From Candidatus Poribacteria bacterium (lineage in GTDB: Bacteria; Poribacteria; WGA-4E; WGA-3G), in the NCBI GenBank assembly GCA_965261115.1, contig OZ253447.1, forward strand, positions 1,977,656-2,041,655: a DNA stretch of 64,000 nt, in the 5' to 3' direction. Below, one piece after another: positions 13,592 to 26,399 of this stretch. Made by a program: the position numbers and the translations under genes. Every line of letters begins with the position of its first letter. The first letter of the stretch is position 1. The notes beneath the pieces were generated by a model, which was not told the origin of the DNA, did not search any database, and saw nothing but the letters and a program-made list of their open reading frames with translations.

Positions 13592-16500
13592 TTACAATCC
13601 TTCTTCAAGTGGGATATGAAACAGCCCGCGCCGTCCGGTGGAAATGTAAAGTCTATCGTCACTAACGACAAGAGAAGCAACTGCACTCGGGACACCTGGA
13701 GCAATCTGTTTCCACTTGCCGCGATCATCCAAGCGATAGATCCCCGTATCACCCGCACCATAAACGCTCGTATGATCGACAGCGAACCTCTCTATCACGA
13801 TACGCGCTTCCATCTCATCGGTTAGCACGCGCCAATGTTCGCCGGTTCGCGAACTCAAGACCCCTTTGTCCGTTGCGACGTAAACCGTTGAACCCGCAAA
13901 AGCTATCTCTTTGAAACGGGTAAACCGAAATGGAAGGTTTGGTGTAATGTCTTTCCAGCTATCCCCCTTATCAAGCGATTGAAACAGTTTACCATCCCGC
14001 TTTCCCACGTAGACATTTTCCGCCGAAGCGGCTAACGCAAACCCATTTCTCAAGCCCCGAGTTGACTGTTTACCGAGATCTATTAACCCAGTGTTTGTCC
14101 ATTTTGAATCGCCAAATTTCCATTTGAAAAGCCCTCGCAGGTGCTCCACATAGAATACTTCGTCACTGGCAGCAAATCCACCCACTCTTGCAGAGGTTGT
14201 AATACCGCGTAATCTTTGCGTCAACTTAGGATTCTTCCCTATGTTATCAGGTAAGTGGATTCCTTCCGCCTTCGCAACAGCAGGCACCAGTGCGATGGAC
14301 AGCATCTCTCGACCAAAAGAGGGCATTTCTTGCACTCGAACGAGGGCATTACCGTCTGTAGATAGACCGAAAATACGTAGATTATCTTTTTCAGCCGAGA
14401 TCCAATACAGCCTTCCGTCTGCAACAACCAACCTTGAATCAGCAGAGAAATTAATGCGAAAATGCTGCTTTTCTATCCGTTCGCCGGTATCAATGCGCAG
14501 GCTTTCCCACGACTCACCACCGTCAGTCGATTGGACAACATTACGACCGGTAGGCACATAGAGCCTATTGTTGAACGCTACCAAATTCTTTATCTTCGTT
14601 CCTACCATCCCATTCATAAATAGGTGCCACGAGTCACCCGCATCAATTGTTTGATAAACACCGAGTGTCCCAACTGTGTAAAAAGTCTTTTCATTCACTG
14701 CTACGCTTCGCGAATTATTATGCGGAAGCAAATTTGCATTGACCCCAAGATTGGTCCAAGTTTCTCCGGCATCTGTTGAGCGAAATCGTTGGATACCTTG
14801 TGCTAAAACCGTTTTACCAGCAACCGAAAACTTTATTCCAAAGGGTGCTATAAAAGAGAGAGGTTCATTCTTAGGCGTAATCTCAGTCCATGATTCACCC
14901 AAGTCGGTTGAGTGGAAGATCCTGCCGCGTGGTAGGTTTCCACCCATCCCGACTCCCGATAGTCCAGGTTCAGACGATTTCCCCAAAAACAGGTCTGGAC
15001 CCATTCCAACATAGAGACTGTTTTCAAAGGCTGTCAAGGAAAGAACAGCATCGAAGGTTGCCACGGGTCTCTGCTCCCAAACACCAGAATTGACGCGATG
15101 GAAATCAATGTGTGCGTTAGCAATCACCTTATTCTCAAGGGATTGGGGGGTTATTGGCACTTCCTTCCAAACACCAGCGTTAAAATGGTAGAGTCCCTCG
15201 TTTGTACCAATAAACATTGTGTTTTCAACCGCAGCCACCGCGTAAATGCGTTTGTCTGTCAATCCTTCGTTAAGAGGGTCCCACTGTCCATCTATAGCCG
15301 TAGATCGGAAAACGCCTTTATCTTGAAACGCGAGATACATCGTAATATCCGCTTGTGAACTGACACCCTGTATTTCATCCATGATAATGAGTCCAACAGA
15401 GCGTCCCTTTGGACGAGGACAAAAAACATTCCACGTCTCACCATTATCGGTTGAAGCGAAGATTGCATCAGTAGAGACAATATAGAGGGTGTCCTTATGC
15501 GCTGCTATAGGCACATGAAAGCTTCCTATTGGGATATTGGTATCAATACGTGTCCACGCAGGCGAACCCACTGACAATCTATAGATACCTGTGGGTGTAG
15601 CAGCATAAAGTATCCCTTCTGATGTCGCAAAAATGTTGAAGACATCGCTACCCTGGGGACCAGTTGCCTGTGTCCACTGTGACGTGGAAAGTATGCGAGA
15701 ATCCCTCTGCACATCAGATGTCAGAAGTGTCTCGGCATCCCGCAAACCGGTATTATTTTTTTTATCAATGGTTCCAGCACGCCCGATTTGATTTCGCACA
15801 TCCGGTTTTGAATCCATATCAAGAATGACACCGGTATCAACGATTTCAATTGTGGGTTCAGATGTTGCCTCAAAACTATAAGGTTTCTGAAAACGAACGA
15901 GGTAACGATTGCTCATACCCAGTAGCAGCAGAATCAAAATCGTAGCTGCACCCAAAGCTGCCCACGGGAGGAATGGCTTCGGAGCTAAAGGCGATGTTGG
16001 GTTTATATCGGTAATTTGTCGCATGATGTTCTGACTTAAATCCGCCGATACCTGCACGCCGCTGAGAACTTCATGAACCAAGAGTTCTTGTTCCTTTTGT
16101 AAACGCTTTCGCGCGCGCTGAAGTCGACTCGTAATCGTGTTCGCCGACACACCTAAAAAATTGCCAATCTCCTTTGTTGTCATTTCACCGAGATAATAGA
16201 GGGTCATTACTGTCCGTTCACTCTCCGGTAGTTTTTTCAGAAGTTTTTTGACGAGTTCAGCGTTGTACGCATTCGCTTCCGTTTCGCGTTGTTCCGATAC
16301 ATAATGCGTATGAGATGACTCTTCTATTTCTTCCATAGGTGTGTCCTCCAGCGATTGCATCGTAGGTTTTCTCTTTCGGAGCCAAGCGATACAAACCCGA
16401 TTCGCAATGACATACAGCCATCCAGCAAACTGACTCGGCTCCTTGAGCGTCGAGAGTTTTCTGTATACTTGGAGAAAGGTGTCTTGCGTAATTTCTTCAG

Positions 16501-16633
16501 CATGATGAAAATCTCCAATCTTCCGCCATGCAAGCGCGTGAACACTCTTTTGATATTTTTCAACTAAAGTATTGAAGGCAGCGTCGTCACCCGCTAAAAT
16601 TTCGTGAATCAGTTGAACATCGTCTCTCTCCAT
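13592..16633 (-). CDS. ECF sigma-70 factor fused to a TM helix and BNR/Asp-box propeller region (paralogue of 7044..9992)
   Basis: Same architecture; similar over the full length, e.g. VYVGKRDGxLFQSLDxGxSWKDITPNLP. Confidence 0.9.
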   Translation of the reverse strand: MERDDVQLIHEILAGDDAAFNTLVEKYQKSVHALAWRKIGDFHHAEEITQDTFLQVYRKLSTLKEPSQFAGWLYVIANRVCIAWLRKRKPTMQSLEDTPMEEIEESSHTHYVSEQRETEANAYNAELVKKLLKKLPESERTVMTLYYLGEMTTKEIGNFLGVSANTITSRLQRARKRLQKEQELLVHEVLSGVQVSADLSQNIMRQITDINPTSPLAPKPFLPWAALGAATILILLLLGMSNRYLVRFQKPYSFEATSEPTIEIVDTGVILDMDSKPDVRNQIGRAGTIDKKNNTGLRDAETLLTSDVQRDSRILSTSQWTQATGPQGSDVFNIFATSEGILYAATPTGIYRLSVGSPAWTRIDTNIPIGSFHVPIAAHKDTLYIVSTDAIFASTDNGETWNVFCPRPKGRSVGLIIMDEIQGVSSQADITMYLAFQDKGVFRSTAIDGQWDPLNEGLTDKRIYAVAAVENTMFIGTNEGLYHFNAGVWKEVPITPQSLENKVIANAHIDFHRVNSGVWEQRPVATFDAVLSLTAFENSLYVGMGPDLFLGKSSEPGLSGVGMGGNLPRGRIFHSTDLGESWTEITPKNEPLSFIAPFGIKFSVAGKTVLAQGIQRFRSTDAGETWTNLGVNANLLPHNNSRSVAVNEKTFYTVGTLGVYQTIDAGDSWHLFMNGMVGTKIKNLVAFNNRLYVPTGRNVVQSTDGGESWESLRIDTGERIEKQHFRINFSADSRLVVADGRLYWISAEKDNLRIFGLSTDGNALVRVQEMPSFGREMLSIALVPAVAKAEGIHLPDNIGKNPKLTQRLRGITTSARVGGFAASDEVFYVEHLRGLFKWKFGDSKWTNTGLIDLGKQSTRGLRNGFALAASAENVYVGKRDGKLFQSLDKGDSWKDITPNLPFRFTRFKEIAFAGSTVYVATDKGVLSSRTGEHWRVLTDEMEARIVIERFAVDHTSVYGAGDTGIYRLDDRGKWKQIAPGVPSAVASLVVSDDRLYISTGRRGLFHIPLEEGL

Positions 16634-20423: not shown

Positions 20424-21863
20424 TTAAGGCGAAACAACAGAAACACGTGCCAGAAAAGCATTGGCTTTCTGATCGTCGGCACTCGTAGCGACCAATTTGA
20501 AGTGCCGACCTCGACTGAAATTGTGAAAAATGTGTCCGATACTACCGGGTGAAACATTCCATGCACCATCCAGTGCTGCATCAGCACCCTCTTTTGAGGG
20601 AAGTTCGGTGTCGTCATGAAACAACTCAAACGTCCCAGCCGACTCGCCTACACCTACCTGTATCTCAATGTGAAGGCTCCCACCACATTCAAACGGTGTC
20701 GTATCAATTTTAACAACTGTATCATCTGGAGTGTCAGTACTGGATGTGCCATAAACATGCAAAACCGCCATCAACGCTGTCCCCAAGCTGATCGGATTTC
20801 CATCTAATTTTGATTTTTTCCCTACACGAGTGCGTCTAGCTTCAAATGCTGCTACAGTATGCTTTAGCACCGTTAGGTATGCGTGCGACGGGTTCTTGTA
20901 AGGCAGTGCCGACTCCGGCTGATGCATAATGACCTCCGCATCCGGAGTCAACGCCAAAATATCCACAGAGTCAGTGTAATGCTGTTGCATTTTTTGAGCC
21001 ACAAGGCTCGGCATCTCGCCTTTCGCACCACTGATCAGTTCTGGCAATTCCCTGAGAAGCACCCATGTATTGACAAACTTCTCGTTGAGTGTCTCGATCA
21101 CTTCTGAATCGGAGAGCGGACCCGCCCTGAAATATTTACCGTTCGCTCAGCAAGATTCATCGTCTAAGCAGCCCCAGACAAGGATCGCATGAATCGGGCG
21201 GTGCGTTGCTTTCGCACGTTCAACTGCGCTCTCAATCGGCAGCCAGTCAATCTTCGCGAATGGGTAAAACTTCAATGCTAATGAACGGCGTGCTGCTTCC
21301 GCTGTGATAAAAGTCTCCCACGCAATTTCATCTTGGTCGGTCTCATCCGTAGCGAGGAGTTCCATACGTGGTACAAAGACCATATCTGCACCACCACAGG
21401 CGTTGATGTCAACATTGCTATTGCGTGCAGGTAGTGCCAACGAAAACGCACGAACCGTTCCTCTTTTCAGATTGACTAACACCTCTCCGACATATTGCGA
21501 TGGGATAAACTTGGCTTCGGACTCCCGTTCCCACCCCGGTTCAGCATTCTCTTGTTGCCACTCCTGATGGGCATCACTTCCCAATGTAAATTCGGCATGT
21601 ATTCGGAAAGTGATCTCTGCATAATCTGAAGAATATGCCCGTAAGCACGCATAAGCACCCTCCTCGCCGTTACCTAAATCAGCCCTTGCCCCCGGGTGAA
21701 ACTGATAAAGGAAAGGAACAATTCTATGTGGATCCAGTGCCCATACATCCCCTACTGCTACAGTTGAAGGCGGAAGAAATATCTTGAAATCTTCCGTCCT
21801 GTATTCCTTGACCGGATGGTGGCAACTTGGGTTAGATATAATACGGTGGTTACTTGGTTGCAT
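20424..21863 (-). CDS. Selenoprotein N (SELENON)-like protein, 479 aa, with in-frame TGA (Sec) at 21147-21149
   Basis: ORFs 21147..21863 and 20424..21101 are in one frame, joined by TGA plus 15 sense codons: WGCLDDESC-U-ANGKYFRAGPLSDSEVIETLNEKFVNTW. This aligns gap-free to the recalled human [45 protein letters not shown], GAxACL, NVD and PxMEL blocks are also shared. Confidence 0.88.
21106..21146 (-). promoter_or_regulatory. Bacterial-type SECIS hairpin immediately 3' of the Sec UGA
   Basis: UGA-GCGAACGGUAAAUAUUUC-AGGGCG-GGUC-CGCUCU-CCGAUUC: 6-bp upper stem, G-starting 4-nt loop 25 nt after UGA, possible lower stem GAACGG/CCG(A)UUC. Confidence 0.7.
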
Positions 21864-22899
21864 TTTCTAATTCCTTAATCCTACCCCAGAACCTTATCTG
21901 CTTCTCCGCACTCGGGGATACTGAGAGAAATTCCTCCGGCATCCACTCAAGATGACCAGGCACCAATCCTCCCGGCACCTCAATGGGTTCTCCACCGCCA
22001 ACGTCATCTGTCTTGGCAATACAGATGACTGAGTTATCAAAAATCTCATCTGCGGGAATCCGCGCCCCGCCGAGCAATCTTTCGACCAATTCTTCTGGCG
22101 TTTCAGTTAAAATATAGGCAATCCATTTTCCACGCGGAGACCAGACCGGTGAAGTGATTAATGTCCACCCTTCATACAACCGGGTGAGTTGACGCATATT
22201 TTTGCCATCTATGTCAATACTGAAAAGCGCATGTCCGCCAACAGCATCGTTCGGTGGGACAAAAGCGATCTCTTTACCATCAGGCGACCATGCACACGCA
22301 CCGGAAGATGTATCTGTGAGCTGCTTTACCCCTTTTCCTTCAGCACTCATGACAAAAATAAAGGATCCTATTTCTGCATCTTTCCTTTTTGCACTAAAGG
22401 CGATCGATTGGCTGTCTGGCGACCAAGCCGGTCTTTTGCAGCCCCCTCGGTTCGTCAGCCGCTTCACATTTGCGCCATCTGCATCTATTCTGTAGATGTC
22501 CATCTCCCCATCGCGTTCGGAGATGAATGCAATCCACTTCCCATTCGGAGACCAAGCGGGCCATATATCTCTACTCTCGTGGAACGTCAACTGACGTTCT
22601 ACATTTGTTCTCACATCCCTCACATAAATATCAGGATCCCCATCCTGATTAGAACCATGGGCAATGGAATGTGCATCAGGCGACCAACTGAAGCTCCCTA
22701 TACGTCCAGGGTCCACCATCAATTCTTGAAGGAGTTCTCCGTGGGTATCTATGAAATGGATGGAACGCGCTCCATTCCCTCTGGGGAGAAAAGAAATGAT
22801 CTCAGCCTCTGCCGCCCACCCATCGCTGACGAATAGGCTACCACTTAGCAACAACGCCATCCCTAATATCACATAGGTTCGCATGCGTTTCATACGCAT
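21850..22899 (-). CDS. Secreted TolB-like PD40-repeat beta-propeller with C-terminal SVSPSAEKQIRFWGRIK motif
   Basis: Signal peptide; repeated PAWSPxGxxIAF motifs; overlaps the next gene start by 14 nt. Confidence 0.88.
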   Translation of the reverse strand: MRMKRMRTYVILGMALLLSGSLFVSDGWAAEAEIISFLPRGNGARSIHFIDTHGELLQELMVDPGRIGSFSWSPDAHSIAHGSNQDGDPDIYVRDVRTNVERQLTFHESRDIWPAWSPNGKWIAFISERDGEMDIYRIDADGANVKRLTNRGGCKRPAWSPDSQSIAFSAKRKDAEIGSFIFVMSAEGKGVKQLTDTSSGACAWSPDGKEIAFVPPNDAVGGHALFSIDIDGKNMRQLTRLYEGWTLITSPVWSPRGKWIAYILTETPEELVERLLGGARIPADEIFDNSVICIAKTDDVGGGEPIEVPGGLVPGHLEWMPEEFLSVSPSAEKQIRFWGRIKELENATK

Positions 22900-23203: not shown

Positions 23204-23233
23204 TTGACATTTTTTTGACTTTAATTATAAGAT
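23204..23233 (+). promoter_or_regulatory. Putative sigma-70 promoter for the DUF1800 gene
   Basis: TTGACA followed 16-18 nt later by TATAAG/TAAGAT. Confidence 0.45.
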
Positions 23234-23349
23234 GTAGGCAATTTGATAGCGGTTTCTCCCAATCCAACAAAACCGAAACCGAAAACGGTATTCCATCAAC
23301 AGTTACCAACGTGAGGGCACGCCTCACAATAAACGCATCGGAGGTGAAC

Positions 23350-24738
23350 ATGTCTGCAAACGATGTTGCGTTAATGGCGCACCTCATGCGCCGCGCAGGG
23401 TTTGGAACAACCCGCACCGAACTGGAAGCCTACGTCGAAAAAGGCTACGAGAACGTAGTTGACGACCTCGTCCATCCCGAACGCGGGACCCCCATTGATG
23501 AAGATATTTTAGAACGCTATTTCGGCAGCGAGGGCGGGTATGTCGGCACTTGGATCTATCGCATGCTGAACAGCAGATGCCCACTGCAAGAGAAGATGGC
23601 ACTCTTCTGGCATCATGTCTTCGCGACAGGGTTAGGCAAAAATCAGCATATCCTTGCATCCACCAACCAGATTGATATGTTGCGCCGGGTCGGGATGGGG
23701 AAGATGCAGGACATTCTGCTTGAACTCTCCAAAGACCCAGCCATGATCTTCTGGCTCGACAACAACGAAAATCGTAAAGGTGAACCCAACGAGAATTACG
23801 GCAGAGAACTCCTTGAACTCTTTTCACTTGGTGTCGGCAACTACACAGAAGACGACATCAAGAACTGCGCACTCGCCTTTACAGGTTGGACGTTTGGACA
23901 ACCGATTCCGTTGTATCCCCACGGCTACTACACGCCACCTTTCCTGTTCGTTGAAGAGGAACATGACAACAGCGAAAAAACCTTCTTGGGGCATACCGGG
24001 AATCTCAACGGCGATGACATCATTAACATCATCGTCGAGCAACCCGCTTGCGCCAGATTTATCTCCAGACACCTTTACAACTTCTTTGTCGCTGATGAAC
24101 CGCAGGTGCCGTCATGGAACGTGACACCCCCGCAAGACCCAGACGCGATTGAGACACTCGCGAACGCATTCATAGCGTCCGACGGAGATATATCGCACGT
24201 CCTGGGTATACTCTTCAATGCCGACTTCTTTAAAGAAGCACGATTTAAGAAGGTGAAAAGCCCGACAGAACTCGTCACCGGTATTTTGAAACTGATAGGC
24301 ACATTCCAAAGTGGGCCAGAACCCGGAATGAATCAATATGCGAGTGCCACGCAATTGATGGGTCAGAAACTGCTCGATCCGCCGACTGTAGAAGGATGGC
24401 ACACCGGTAAAGAGTGGATCGATGGCGGGCTACTTACGGCGCGCGTCAACTTCGCTGTTCGCGAGGTCAGCGACGCTGCCAAACCCGGCATTCAGGACAT
24501 CATCACACGCCTGAAAAACAACGGGAACCCGCTCTCACCAGAAGCATTCGTCGAGAGTTGCCTTGAGTTTACCGGTCCGCTGTCAGTAGGAGATACCACG
24601 CGTCAGTATTTAACCGAGTTCGCGGAAGCAAACGGTGAGATCAATTTTCAAGATGATGACGCTGCAGAGGAGAACCAAGCACTGCTCATCAGTATGCTCC
24701 AACTAATCGTAGCATCCAGAGAATACCAGTTCGGCTAA
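23350..24738 (+). CDS. DUF1800 family protein
   Basis: AHLMRRAGFG, LQEKMALFWHHVF, PNENYGRELLELFSLG, PPTVEGW motifs; GGAGG RBS before ATG 23350. Confidence 0.9.
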   Translation: MSANDVALMAHLMRRAGFGTTRTELEAYVEKGYENVVDDLVHPERGTPIDEDILERYFGSEGGYVGTWIYRMLNSRCPLQEKMALFWHHVFATGLGKNQHILASTNQIDMLRRVGMGKMQDILLELSKDPAMIFWLDNNENRKGEPNENYGRELLELFSLGVGNYTEDDIKNCALAFTGWTFGQPIPLYPHGYYTPPFLFVEEEHDNSEKTFLGHTGNLNGDDIINIIVEQPACARFISRHLYNFFVADEPQVPSWNVTPPQDPDAIETLANAFIASDGDISHVLGILFNADFFKEARFKKVKSPTELVTGILKLIGTFQSGPEPGMNQYASATQLMGQKLLDPPTVEGWHTGKEWIDGGLLTARVNFAVREVSDAAKPGIQDIITRLKNNGNPLSPEAFVESCLEFTGPLSVGDTTRQYLTEFAEANGEINFQDDDAAEENQALLISMLQLIVASREYQFG

Positions 24739-25256: not shown

Positions 25257-26399
25257 ATGAATACGACAAAAAAAGCCCCGGTCCTCGTCGTTGTACAACT
25301 CACAGGCGGCAATGACTTCATGAACACACTCATCCCCTACACAAGCGGGATTTACCACGATTCCCGTCCAGTTGTCGGCATTAAAGCGGAAGACGTGATA
25401 CCCTTAGACGTAGACGATACGTTGGGCTGGAACCCACACGCCGCACCCCTCAAAGAGATGTTCGATGCCGGTGATGTCGCCGTTGTACAGGGGATCGGCT
25501 ACCCGGATTCAAACCGCTCACATTTCCGAGCGATGGACATCTGGCACACCTGTGAACCCCTGAAAATCGGCGATGAAGGGTGGGTCGGCAGACTCGTCCG
25601 GGAACTGGACCCGCAAAGCCAGAATGTTCTAACCTGCGTCAGTTTCGGACAGGGACTCCCGCGCGCCTGTGCACTCGCCGGCACCCCGGTTACCTCCGTC
25701 GGCGACCTGGATAACTACGGACTGATGACCAGCATCGGCGACGAAGGCCAACGCACAAAGGCACTTGACATATTCAAGAAGATGTACAGCGGCACAGTCG
25801 GCACCGGCATTGTGATGGACTATCTCAGCCAAACCGGGTTAGATGTCATCAAAGGTGCTGACGAACTCAAGAAGGCACCAGCGATGTATAATTCTGAAGT
25901 GGAGTACCCACAAAGTTCAATCGCCAAAAGCCTACGGGATGTCGCACGAGTCCACCTCGCCGATCTCGGCACACGCGTCTTTTACACACAACACGGCGGA
26001 TACGACAACCACGCCAACGAAGTCCCAGCGCACCCACGCCTCCTGAAAGATTTGACAGAGGCGATCCAAGCGTTCTTCACCGATTTACGCGCCCAGAACG
26101 CCTCTGAAGAGGTTGTCATGTACGTGTTCACAGAATTCGGCAGACGGATCCGGGACAACGCCAGCGGCACAGACCACGGTACCGGCGGCGGCGCGTTCAT
26201 CATCGGCGATCGCGTAAAAGGCGGACTCTACTCAGAATACCCGTCTCTCGATCCTGCGCGCTGGGTACACGGCGAAGACTTGGAGCACACCATCGATTTT
26301 CGTGGCATATACGGAACACTTTTAGAGCAGTGGATGGGTGTCAACCCAACCCAAATTGTCGGCGGAAACTTTGAACAAATCCATCCCTTTTCCTCTTAA
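25257..26399 (+). CDS. DUF1501 family protein (no Tat signal)
   Basis: LVVVQLTGGND, NRSHFRAMDIW, GGYDNHANE, TEFGRR..N...GTDHG motifs. Confidence 0.9.
   Translation: MNTTKKAPVLVVVQLTGGNDFMNTLIPYTSGIYHDSRPVVGIKAEDVIPLDVDDTLGWNPHAAPLKEMFDAGDVAVVQGIGYPDSNRSHFRAMDIWHTCEPLKIGDEGWVGRLVRELDPQSQNVLTCVSFGQGLPRACALAGTPVTSVGDLDNYGLMTSIGDEGQRTKALDIFKKMYSGTVGTGIVMDYLSQTGLDVIKGADELKKAPAMYNSEVEYPQSSIAKSLRDVARVHLADLGTRVFYTQHGGYDNHANEVPAHPRLLKDLTEAIQAFFTDLRAQNASEEVVMYVFTEFGRRIRDNASGTDHGTGGGAFIIGDRVKGGLYSEYPSLDPARWVHGEDLEHTIDFRGIYGTLLEQWMGVNPTQIVGGNFEQIHPFSS

Follow-up and report, generated by a model that had tools for sequence, protein, structure and literature searches.

A selenoprotein N-like gene of Poribacteria split by annotation at an in-frame UGA codon

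Do two neighbouring open reading frames (ORFs) in a Candidatus Poribacteria genome encode two proteins, or one protein in which an in-frame UGA codon is read as selenocysteine (Sec, U)? The locus lies on the minus strand of the window, by which we mean the whole 64,000-nt stretch of DNA analysed and to which all plain coordinates refer; the source genome is a single 6.67-Mb contig (C1). With translation table 11, ORFs were called at 21147..21863 (238 aa, ATG start) and 20424..21101 (225 aa, GTG start). When TGA was read as U, 20424-21863 (minus strand) became a single frame of 479 residues ending in TAA, with U239 as its sole non-standard codon. A preliminary description of this DNA had claimed that the two ORFs were one frame; the TGA at 21149..21147, immediately after Cys238, was indeed the only interruption, the coordinates were exact, and the peptide it had quoted, HAILVWGCLDDESC-U-ANGKYFRAGPLSDSEVIETLNEKFVNTWVLL, was recovered letter for letter. 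The plus-strand frame at 20424-21863 was riddled with stops. Standard annotation splits the gene, as had been expected, and most database entries of the family are halves. The two annotated ORFs are very probably one gene for a Sec-containing bacterial member of the selenoprotein N (SELENON) family, with UGA239 recoded. Its parts are as follows.

20424..21863, minus strand: whole selenoprotein N-like gene, 479 codons plus TAA (20426..20424); assigned by homology to animal SELENON and bacterial relatives.
21147..21149, minus strand: Sec codon UGA (U239) in the motif DDESC-U-ANGK; assigned by conservation of the TGA column, with Cys in some homologues.
21112..21129, minus strand: putative bacterial Sec insertion sequence (bSECIS) hairpin; assigned by pairing, covariation and synonymous-codon constraint.
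21309..21863, minus strand: N-terminal beta-rich domain (N-domain), residues 1 to ~185, homologue of the SELENON N-domain, N-terminally truncated; assigned by alignment and models.
20829..21308, minus strand: thioredoxin-like domain, residues ~186-345, with the C238-U239 pair; assigned by structural matches and a profile alignment to 3ira.
20427..20783, minus strand: C-terminal beta-sandwich module, residues 361-479; assigned by model strands and structural matches (Z 9-11).

Animal SELENON (SEPN1) is a membrane glycoprotein of the endoplasmic reticulum (ER), mutated in SEPN1-related myopathy. The 479-aa read-through protein was used as a phmmer query against 1.84 billion representative proteins, giving 505 matches at E<=1e-3, 269 at <=1e-10 and 38 at <=1e-30. 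Among them were a wombat "EF-hand domain-containing protein" (P0194, E 2.6e-26), a Nematostella protein (P0225, E 9.3e-23) and a hagfish protein named "Selenoprotein N" (P0267, E 3.5e-18); these three are the animal sequences compared here, and human SELENON was not among them. By BLASTP the window protein was 30% identical to the hagfish protein over 294 columns (residues 51-312) spanning the TGA (E 5e-32), and it matched the wombat protein with E 4e-34. That animal SELENON is similar to the window protein before as well as after the TGA, a central point of the preliminary description, was thus confirmed by phmmer, BLASTP and a 30-row alignment; in the alignment the similarity began at the opening strand of the N-domain and lasted until the thioredoxin-like domain ended. 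Blocks common to the bacterial and animal rows were FLP.., P(A/S)QF.G, NVD, P(R/Q)MEL, FY.F..(I/V).(W/Y).P and LDD(E/Q)SC, and the SELENON motifs quoted in the preliminary description were also seen in the retrieved wombat, hagfish and Nematostella sequences. Homology over the N-domain and the thioredoxin-like domain (phmmer, BLASTP) places the protein in the SELENON family. At the Cys-Sec dyad, DDESC-U-ANGK of the window protein occupied the same columns as DDQSC-[gap]-SGR of the animal gene models; SCUG we take to be the Cys-Sec motif of animal SELENON.

The differences from animal SELENON that had been listed also held. The 479-aa protein contained no transmembrane (TM) segment and no EF-hand and gave no Pfam match at E<=0.01, and the EF-hand region of P0194, P0225 and P0267 was unmatched in any bacterial row of the alignment, so that the TM anchor and EF-hand of the animal architecture are absent. 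The extra Cys (WGC) was present and confined to the orthologue group of the window gene, and the C-terminal beta-rich module was confirmed at residues 361-479, about 120 aa.

Conservation of the UGA was followed in three sets of relatives. In the phmmer set, 104 of the 150 best representatives stopped at a ..D(E/Q)xC-type motif, exactly one residue before the Sec column. The second set comprised the best 80 of 153 relatives found in named genome records with a profile from a 10-row alignment; all are Poribacteria, and hence uninformative for other phyla. The primary-match site was located by pattern in 78 of these 80 loci, with TGA in 77 and TGG in one (L072), while the patterns found no Sec site in L070 and L091; once flanking paralogues and the window gene were counted, 94 of 95 sites were TGA. 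L072 keeps the hairpin described below despite its TGG, which may represent natural loss of Sec or a sequencing error. The third set, metagenome loci found with a profile of relatives of the signal-peptide type, had TGA as the codon after DDESC in all 21 cases. Where the contig permits, their frames ran on for 94-356 codons past the TGA with conserved GSGK.LRAGPLS...FVN.W...YPVD blocks; contig ends cut L108, L109 and L110 at 62, 56 and 2 codons past it. Neither TAA nor TAG was found at the Sec column in any of 121 unique sites, all TGA, even though the search pattern allowed any stop. Homologues thus have TGA or Cys at this column and never TAA or TAG at those sites, as had been predicted. Cys forms were represented by P0132, P0140, P0148, P0150 and P0152, which read ..SCC.. 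or ..ACC.. at the Sec site. Other residues in the column were W in P0123, A in P0196 and F in P0161; the W of P0123 most likely reflects a gene caller reading TGA as Trp. A conserved in-frame UGA with Cys in some homologues, the pattern by which bacterial selenoproteins are recognised, was therefore found, and the ending of 104 of 150 best representatives at this Cys, together with the conservation of the TGA, places the observation of the frame far beyond chance.

A hairpin within the coding sequence starts 17 nt past the UGA. Counted from the U of UGA, columns 21-27 pair with columns 32-38. The family consensus is GAG(G/A)GCG-GGUC-CGCUCUC, with GAGGGC-AGGU-GUCCUC and variants in other paralogue groups. 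The loop in the window is GGUC (21122..21119), and AGGU or AGUU elsewhere in the family; the stem is 6-7 bp long in the family, and 6 bp in the window copy, where C faces C at the outermost position. A stem-loop shortly downstream of the UGA with a G in its apical loop, as in a bSECIS, is therefore present, and the loop G and the 24-nt distance presumably agree with the published bSECIS model. Statistics were computed on 85 sequences (84 distinct), whose kinship overstates their independence. Stem cells were paired in 92.7% of cases, compared with 38.8-75.9% when the 3' arm was slid, and the covariation score was 0.190 against a shuffled mean of 0.121, a value reached by none of 500 shuffles. 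Three of the seven stem pairs changed on both sides. Individual compensations were C26-G33 to U-A in L062 and L086, G21-C38 to C-G in five rows (e.g. L069, L071, L075 and L078; with Ser to Cys), and A22-U37 to C-G in metagenome locus L114 (with Arg CGA and Ala GCC). A metagenome relative, L107 (3766-3825), reads LRESLLG after the TGA, nearer to the animal LRE..LE, and a different hairpin was predicted there at the same distance.

Codon choice within the hairpin was compared with the background in the same genes, whose proteins are only 35-95% identical, as follows.

Arg: AGG/AGA in 118 of 120 hairpin codons, background 19%.
Gly: GGT in 109 of 109, background 29%.
Leu: CTC in 115 of 118, background 25%.
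Pro: CCG in 86 of 89, background 46%.
Ala: GCG/GCA in 109 of 109, background 62%.

This fixation of synonymous sites is the strongest argument that the hairpin may act as a recoding signal, and its conservation fits a putative bacterial SECIS.

The machinery for Sec insertion was complete in the same genome, as the preliminary description would have it: selA (605 bits), selB (338 bits) and selD (361 bits) each scored over its cut-off, and aragorn detected a tRNA-SeC(tca) gene (selC) directly adjoining selB. The selD gene (C1:4073587-4074510) itself contains one in-frame TGA and is of the Sec type of selenophosphate synthetase. Since TGA closes 22 of the 66 long frames of the window, the genome is not generally recoded. 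The ratio of non-synonymous to synonymous substitution rates (dN/dS) against five orthologues was 0.18-0.30 upstream of the TGA and 0.18-0.26 downstream, indicating that both halves evolve as coding sequence under purifying selection.

An AlphaFold2 (AF2) model of the window protein was built from a 58-row alignment (mean predicted local distance difference test score, pLDDT, 89.3; predicted template modelling score, pTM, 0.79). Residues ~202-345 adopted a thioredoxin fold, with Z scores of 13.7 to 3f9u, 13.3 to 1sen (ERp19), 13.0 to 7tkv (Thioredox_DsbH) and 12.6 to AGR3, at root-mean-square deviations of 2.2-2.8 A over 115-128 aligned residues. Strand 224-229, the first of this fold, is followed by a loop with C238-U239 and helix 240-247, placing the dyad at the helix N-terminus, the CxxC position, where a thioredoxin fold carries its redox residue. 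A weak profile alignment (E 0.038) with 3ira set U opposite the first Cys of CHWC. By sequence, the Pfam match to Thioredox_DsbH (PF03190) scored 12.9 bits (E 0.11), below the gathering cut-off of 27, Pfam searches of 58 family members gave a single weak DsbH match at E<=0.01 (one of 58), and a search of PDB sequences with the read-through protein returned nothing significant. For the N-domain, modelled from the intact orthologue P0290 (pLDDT 92.5), a fold search of 48,161 solved representative chains yielded nothing convincing; the top match, a nitrobindin-like barrel at Z 5.7, was below the trust level. The C-terminal residues 361-479 formed a beta-sandwich with generic matches at Z 9-11 (the subtilisin Tk-SP C-domain, GOLD, ColG/ColH CBD, PPC, jelly rolls and viral capsids) and no Pfam match.

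From these features a mechanism may be proposed. SelB and tRNA-Sec would recode UGA239 to Sec, directed by the hairpin inside the coding sequence; Cys238-Sec239 would sit at the thioredoxin CxxC site, Sec taking the place of the attacking Cys; and the protein would act as a thiol-disulfide oxidoreductase through a Cys-Sec selenenylsulfide cycle. It is most likely a thiol-disulfide oxidoreductase, and probably a reductase. For the window protein we infer Sec insertion itself, as well as the redox chemistry, substrate and cellular location.

The gene is not an isolated curiosity. The genome carries 13 SelN-like genes, each with an in-frame TGA, and the family is a large bacterial one that includes members from non-sponge metagenomes. 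Tandem arrays of six (C1:1894560-1905088) and three genes (C1:2744414-2751084) were found, and the C-terminal beta-sandwich module occurred once or twice per paralogue. One Sec paralogue (C1:5864989-5867076, 696 aa) has, by eye, C-terminal TPR-like repeats and a TlpA/AhpC-like thioredoxin module. A 469-aa protein at C1:2655321-2656727 has a SELENON-type N-domain split by a coiled-coil insert of ~200 aa, and lacks both the thioredoxin part and a TGA.

Matches turned up in 63 of 81 genomes sampled from the phylum, up to 15 per genome, and 149 of the 150 matches listed contain TGA. By family, matches occurred in 51 of 53 genomes of f1, 6 of 6 of f2, 5 of 13 of f3 and 0 of 8 of f4-f8. Outside the group of the window gene, 81 of 93 full-length N-terminal representatives had a hydrophobic N-terminal segment, which the Poribacteria group of the window gene lacks; most of the wider bacterial family is probably exported or anchored, judging from these N-termini. 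P0150 was fused to extracytoplasmic function (ECF) sigma-70 domains (Pfam), and P0125 likewise by eye. A search with the Cys form matched 16 metagenome proteins. Among the ESM Atlas rows Candidatus Poribacteria was the commonest, with a weak lead to Planctomycetota (score 0.77). In sum, we judge the gene to be a genuine Sec-encoding form, in bacteria, of a selenoprotein family known from eukaryotes, mis-split by annotation and greatly amplified in sponge-associated Poribacteria.

Several observations weigh against this reading. The orthologue L072 has TGG (Trp) at the Sec codon (L072:3700-3702). The retrieved animal sequences are gene models that skip U, so the animal Sec column was deduced from its flanks and the SCUG motif. 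Neither Pfam nor NCBIfam gave a significant match for the read-through protein. The 81 nt that follow the TGA had an ordinary folding energy, no better than that of shuffles (z -0.03), and an Rfam scan around the TGA gave chance-level matches only; the case for a SECIS is for these reasons one of conservation alone, and the bases of the hairpin also encode a conserved peptide, LRAGPLS. The window copy lacks ~31 N-terminal residues, including the strand ..VRVHAHWEPIA.. conserved into the animal proteins. There is no shared synteny, tblastn of five window neighbours against the 80 loci having returned low-identity PD40 repeats only.

The last two points bear on the alternative that survives best, namely that the family is real and that this copy is a 5'-truncated remnant becoming a pseudogene, without a working protein. 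Two features at the start of the gene are needed here.

21872..21876, minus strand: AAGGA, Shine-Dalgarno-like, 8 nt upstream of the ATG at 21863; read from the sequence, a putative ribosome-binding site.
21819..21863, minus strand: 5' end non-homologous to the orthologues, with a breakpoint near codons 10-15; overlaps the 3' end of the PD40 gene at 21850..22899.

P0002, L014 and other orthologues, 88-95% identical to the window gene in nucleotides, start ~31 residues further upstream, and the added stretch includes a strand kept even in animals. Nucleotide homology to 10 orthologous loci was limited to 21819..20426, so that it begins only within the gene; the PD40 gene overlaps the start, and the missing strand was encoded in no frame upstream of the window gene. 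The gene context is also unlike that of the orthologues: the neighbours are not redox-related, and none is conserved beside the orthologues. They comprise a PD40 beta-propeller gene (21850-22899, minus strand) overlapping the new ATG and a DUF1800/DUF1501 pair (23215-24738 and 25257-26399, plus strand). Transcript evidence comes from relatives. Contigs from RNA libraries (four metatranscriptomic runs of three studies) span the TGA of ~95% identical orthologues, in libraries that may contain DNA; one of 1,522 nt covers 20431-21812 with 66 differences from the window. Among the 40 differences listed, of 209 in total, none fell at 21147-21149. Because the RNA contigs part from the window sequence at 21812 and at 20425-20431, they derive from relatives with other flanks and not from the window strain. 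Given the possible DNA in such libraries, they lend weak support to a gene read through the TGA. On the other side, all 479 codons are open with the Sec TGA as the only exception; dN/dS is 0.18-0.30 over the two halves, though the truncation may be younger than most of that divergence; the new ATG is preceded by AAGGA at a distance of 8 nt; and the truncated protein gave a confident AF2 model (pLDDT 89.3), which is no proof of stability. We consider decay of this copy unlikely, at roughly one chance in several; since the window protein is without a signal peptide and without the first strand conserved in its orthologues, the activity of this copy is less certain than that of its family.

Elsewhere in the window, 13592-16633 (minus strand) encodes a 1013-aa protein in which ECF sigma-70 regions 2 and 4 are fused to BNR/Sortilin-type beta-propeller repeats. 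The same layout of a sigma factor with an outside domain is seen in the SelN-like proteins P0125 and P0150.

A second alternative is recent horizontal transfer, from the sponge host to Poribacteria or from symbiont to host. It draws on the origin of the genome, a relative of sponge-associated Poribacteria, and it was examined with two unrooted trees, FastTree on 116 rows and IQ-TREE (LG+G4) on 46 chosen rows, neither including a sponge SELENON. The eukaryote-type rows were the three named animals and P0266, whose origin is guessed, and the Poribacteria clades include P-numbered rows of no known organism. In both trees the four eukaryote-type rows formed one clade on a branch ~1.0 long, whose nearest rows were not Poribacteria, and the Poribacteria paralogues fell into two separate clades nested among other bacterial rows. 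Forcing the eukaryotes together with either Poribacteria clade cost 13.1 or 18.8 log-likelihood units, although the approximately unbiased (AU) test rejected neither grouping (p 0.23 and 0.19). Against transfer stand, besides this topology, the same TGA and hairpin in 21 metagenome contigs that are not Poribacteria-like, and the use by this gene of an in-frame hairpin of the bacterial type. A recent transfer is thus very improbable. Of the two origins offered in the preliminary description, recent host-symbiont transfer finds no support in the trees, within the limits of the AU test, whereas a bacterial origin of the SELENON family is plausible because of the family's breadth. SELENON, described there as regarded as a largely animal family, is not strictly animal: one paper (PMC7539508) lists it in a few algae.

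The remaining alternative, that translation really terminates at the TGA and the locus makes a 238-aa N-terminal protein and a separate 225-aa protein from the GTG at 21101, can be set aside almost entirely: standard gene callers do split here, most database entries are halves, and C-terminal halves are listed as separate predicted proteins (P0124, P0127), but such a split would break up the thioredoxin fold just where its active site lies, all 121 unique sites have TGA with no TAA or TAG among them, full-length relatives containing Cys exist, the stretch from the TGA to the GTG (ANGKYFRAGPLSDSEV) is conserved and can be aligned to animal SELENON, and the genome has the Sec machinery and the gene a conserved hairpin.

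Returning to one recoded gene of the SELENON family, its name was already present in automatic annotation: IMG calls P0139 "selenoprotein N", and an ESM Atlas cluster whose commonest phylum is Candidatus Poribacteria is auto-named "Putative selenoprotein n 1 (Fragment)". In the literature searched, no description of a bacterial SELENON homologue was found; a paper that brings together Poribacteria and selenoproteins deals with hydrogenases. Term searches in the main text of the GOS survey of 2008, of two reviews of prokaryotic selenoproteins (2022 and 2026) and of the BSepDB paper met with no mention of selenoprotein N. The family name is thus in automatic annotation, and a published description was not found.

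The tandem arrays, duplicated beta-sandwich modules and TlpA-like and ECF-sigma fusions of the Poribacteria expansion suggest a diversified toolkit for redox or surface sensing inside the host. It may be, and we offer this tentatively, that SELENON goes back to a large and ancient family in bacteria, whose members are Sec-dependent thiol-disulfide reductases and mostly exported, that the animal ER protein descends from this family through the gain of a TM anchor and an EF-hand, and that the Poribacteria expansion is a redox and surface-sensing toolkit for life in a host. The chemistry of SELENON is poorly defined, and no solved structure of it or of a close relative was found by the sequence and fold searches made here. 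A bacterial family with the same N-domain, the same Cys-Sec site and natural Cys variants could provide soluble, expressible models for its structure and enzymology; if the bacterial root is as ancient as suggested, Cys-containing or recombinant bacterial forms would for the first time give a tractable way into the myopathy protein, its structure and its chemistry. The family also reframes the origin of SELENON, adds to microbiology a widespread selenoprotein family that is mis-split by annotation and strikingly amplified in sponge symbionts, and offers a clean example of a putative coding-region SECIS recognisable by synonymous-codon fixation alone.

Compared with known systems, the window gene resembles first the known bacterial thioredoxin-fold selenoproteins (SelW-like, Prx-like and DsbA-like families from surveys of prokaryotic selenoproteomes), which likewise have UGA for a redox Cys, rare Cys homologues, a downstream hairpin and dependence on selA, selB, selC and selD; the C-U dyad and the SELENON N-domain set the window family apart from them. 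The Thioredox_DsbH/DUF255 domains (PF03190; 7tkv, 3ira), ERp19 and AGR3 have the same fold as window residues ~202-345 (Z 12.6-13.7, root-mean-square deviation 2.2-3.5 A, 115-145 aligned residues) and carry their redox residue at the start of the corresponding helix. The window protein differs from Thioredox_DsbH/DUF255 in having an adjacent C-U pair instead of CxxC, in a sequence similarity that is under the family thresholds, and in the joining of its thioredoxin-like domain to an N-domain without a solved counterpart.

A further likeness is to animal SELENON. Both proteins have a homologous beta-rich N-domain and thioredoxin-like domain and a Cys-Sec pair in the context ...LDD[EQ]SC-U..., and FRIHAEF, PRMEL/PQMEL and FVNTW/FISTW are common to them. 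The window protein is without the N-terminal TM anchor and EF-hand and has an extra C-terminal beta-sandwich; its recoding signal would be an in-frame bacterial hairpin, compared with a SECIS in the 3' untranslated region of animal SELENON; and the gene is one of 13 copies in its genome, unlike the animal gene. Most bacterial relatives, again unlike animal SELENON, have a signal peptide or a lipoprotein-like N-terminus, and in a few the SelN-like part is joined to ECF sigma-factor domains. Localisation to the ER and reductase activity towards SERCA2 belong to the animal protein and are without a bacterial equivalent. Marino in 2015 and Chernorudskiy in 2020 are said to have proposed a redox role for the Cys-Sec motif of SELENON; a term search of the latter paper turned up no mention of bacteria. 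The selenenylsulfide chemistry that we propose would have its parallels in proposals made for animal SELENON, at its SCUG motif, and for thioredoxin reductase, at its GCUG end.

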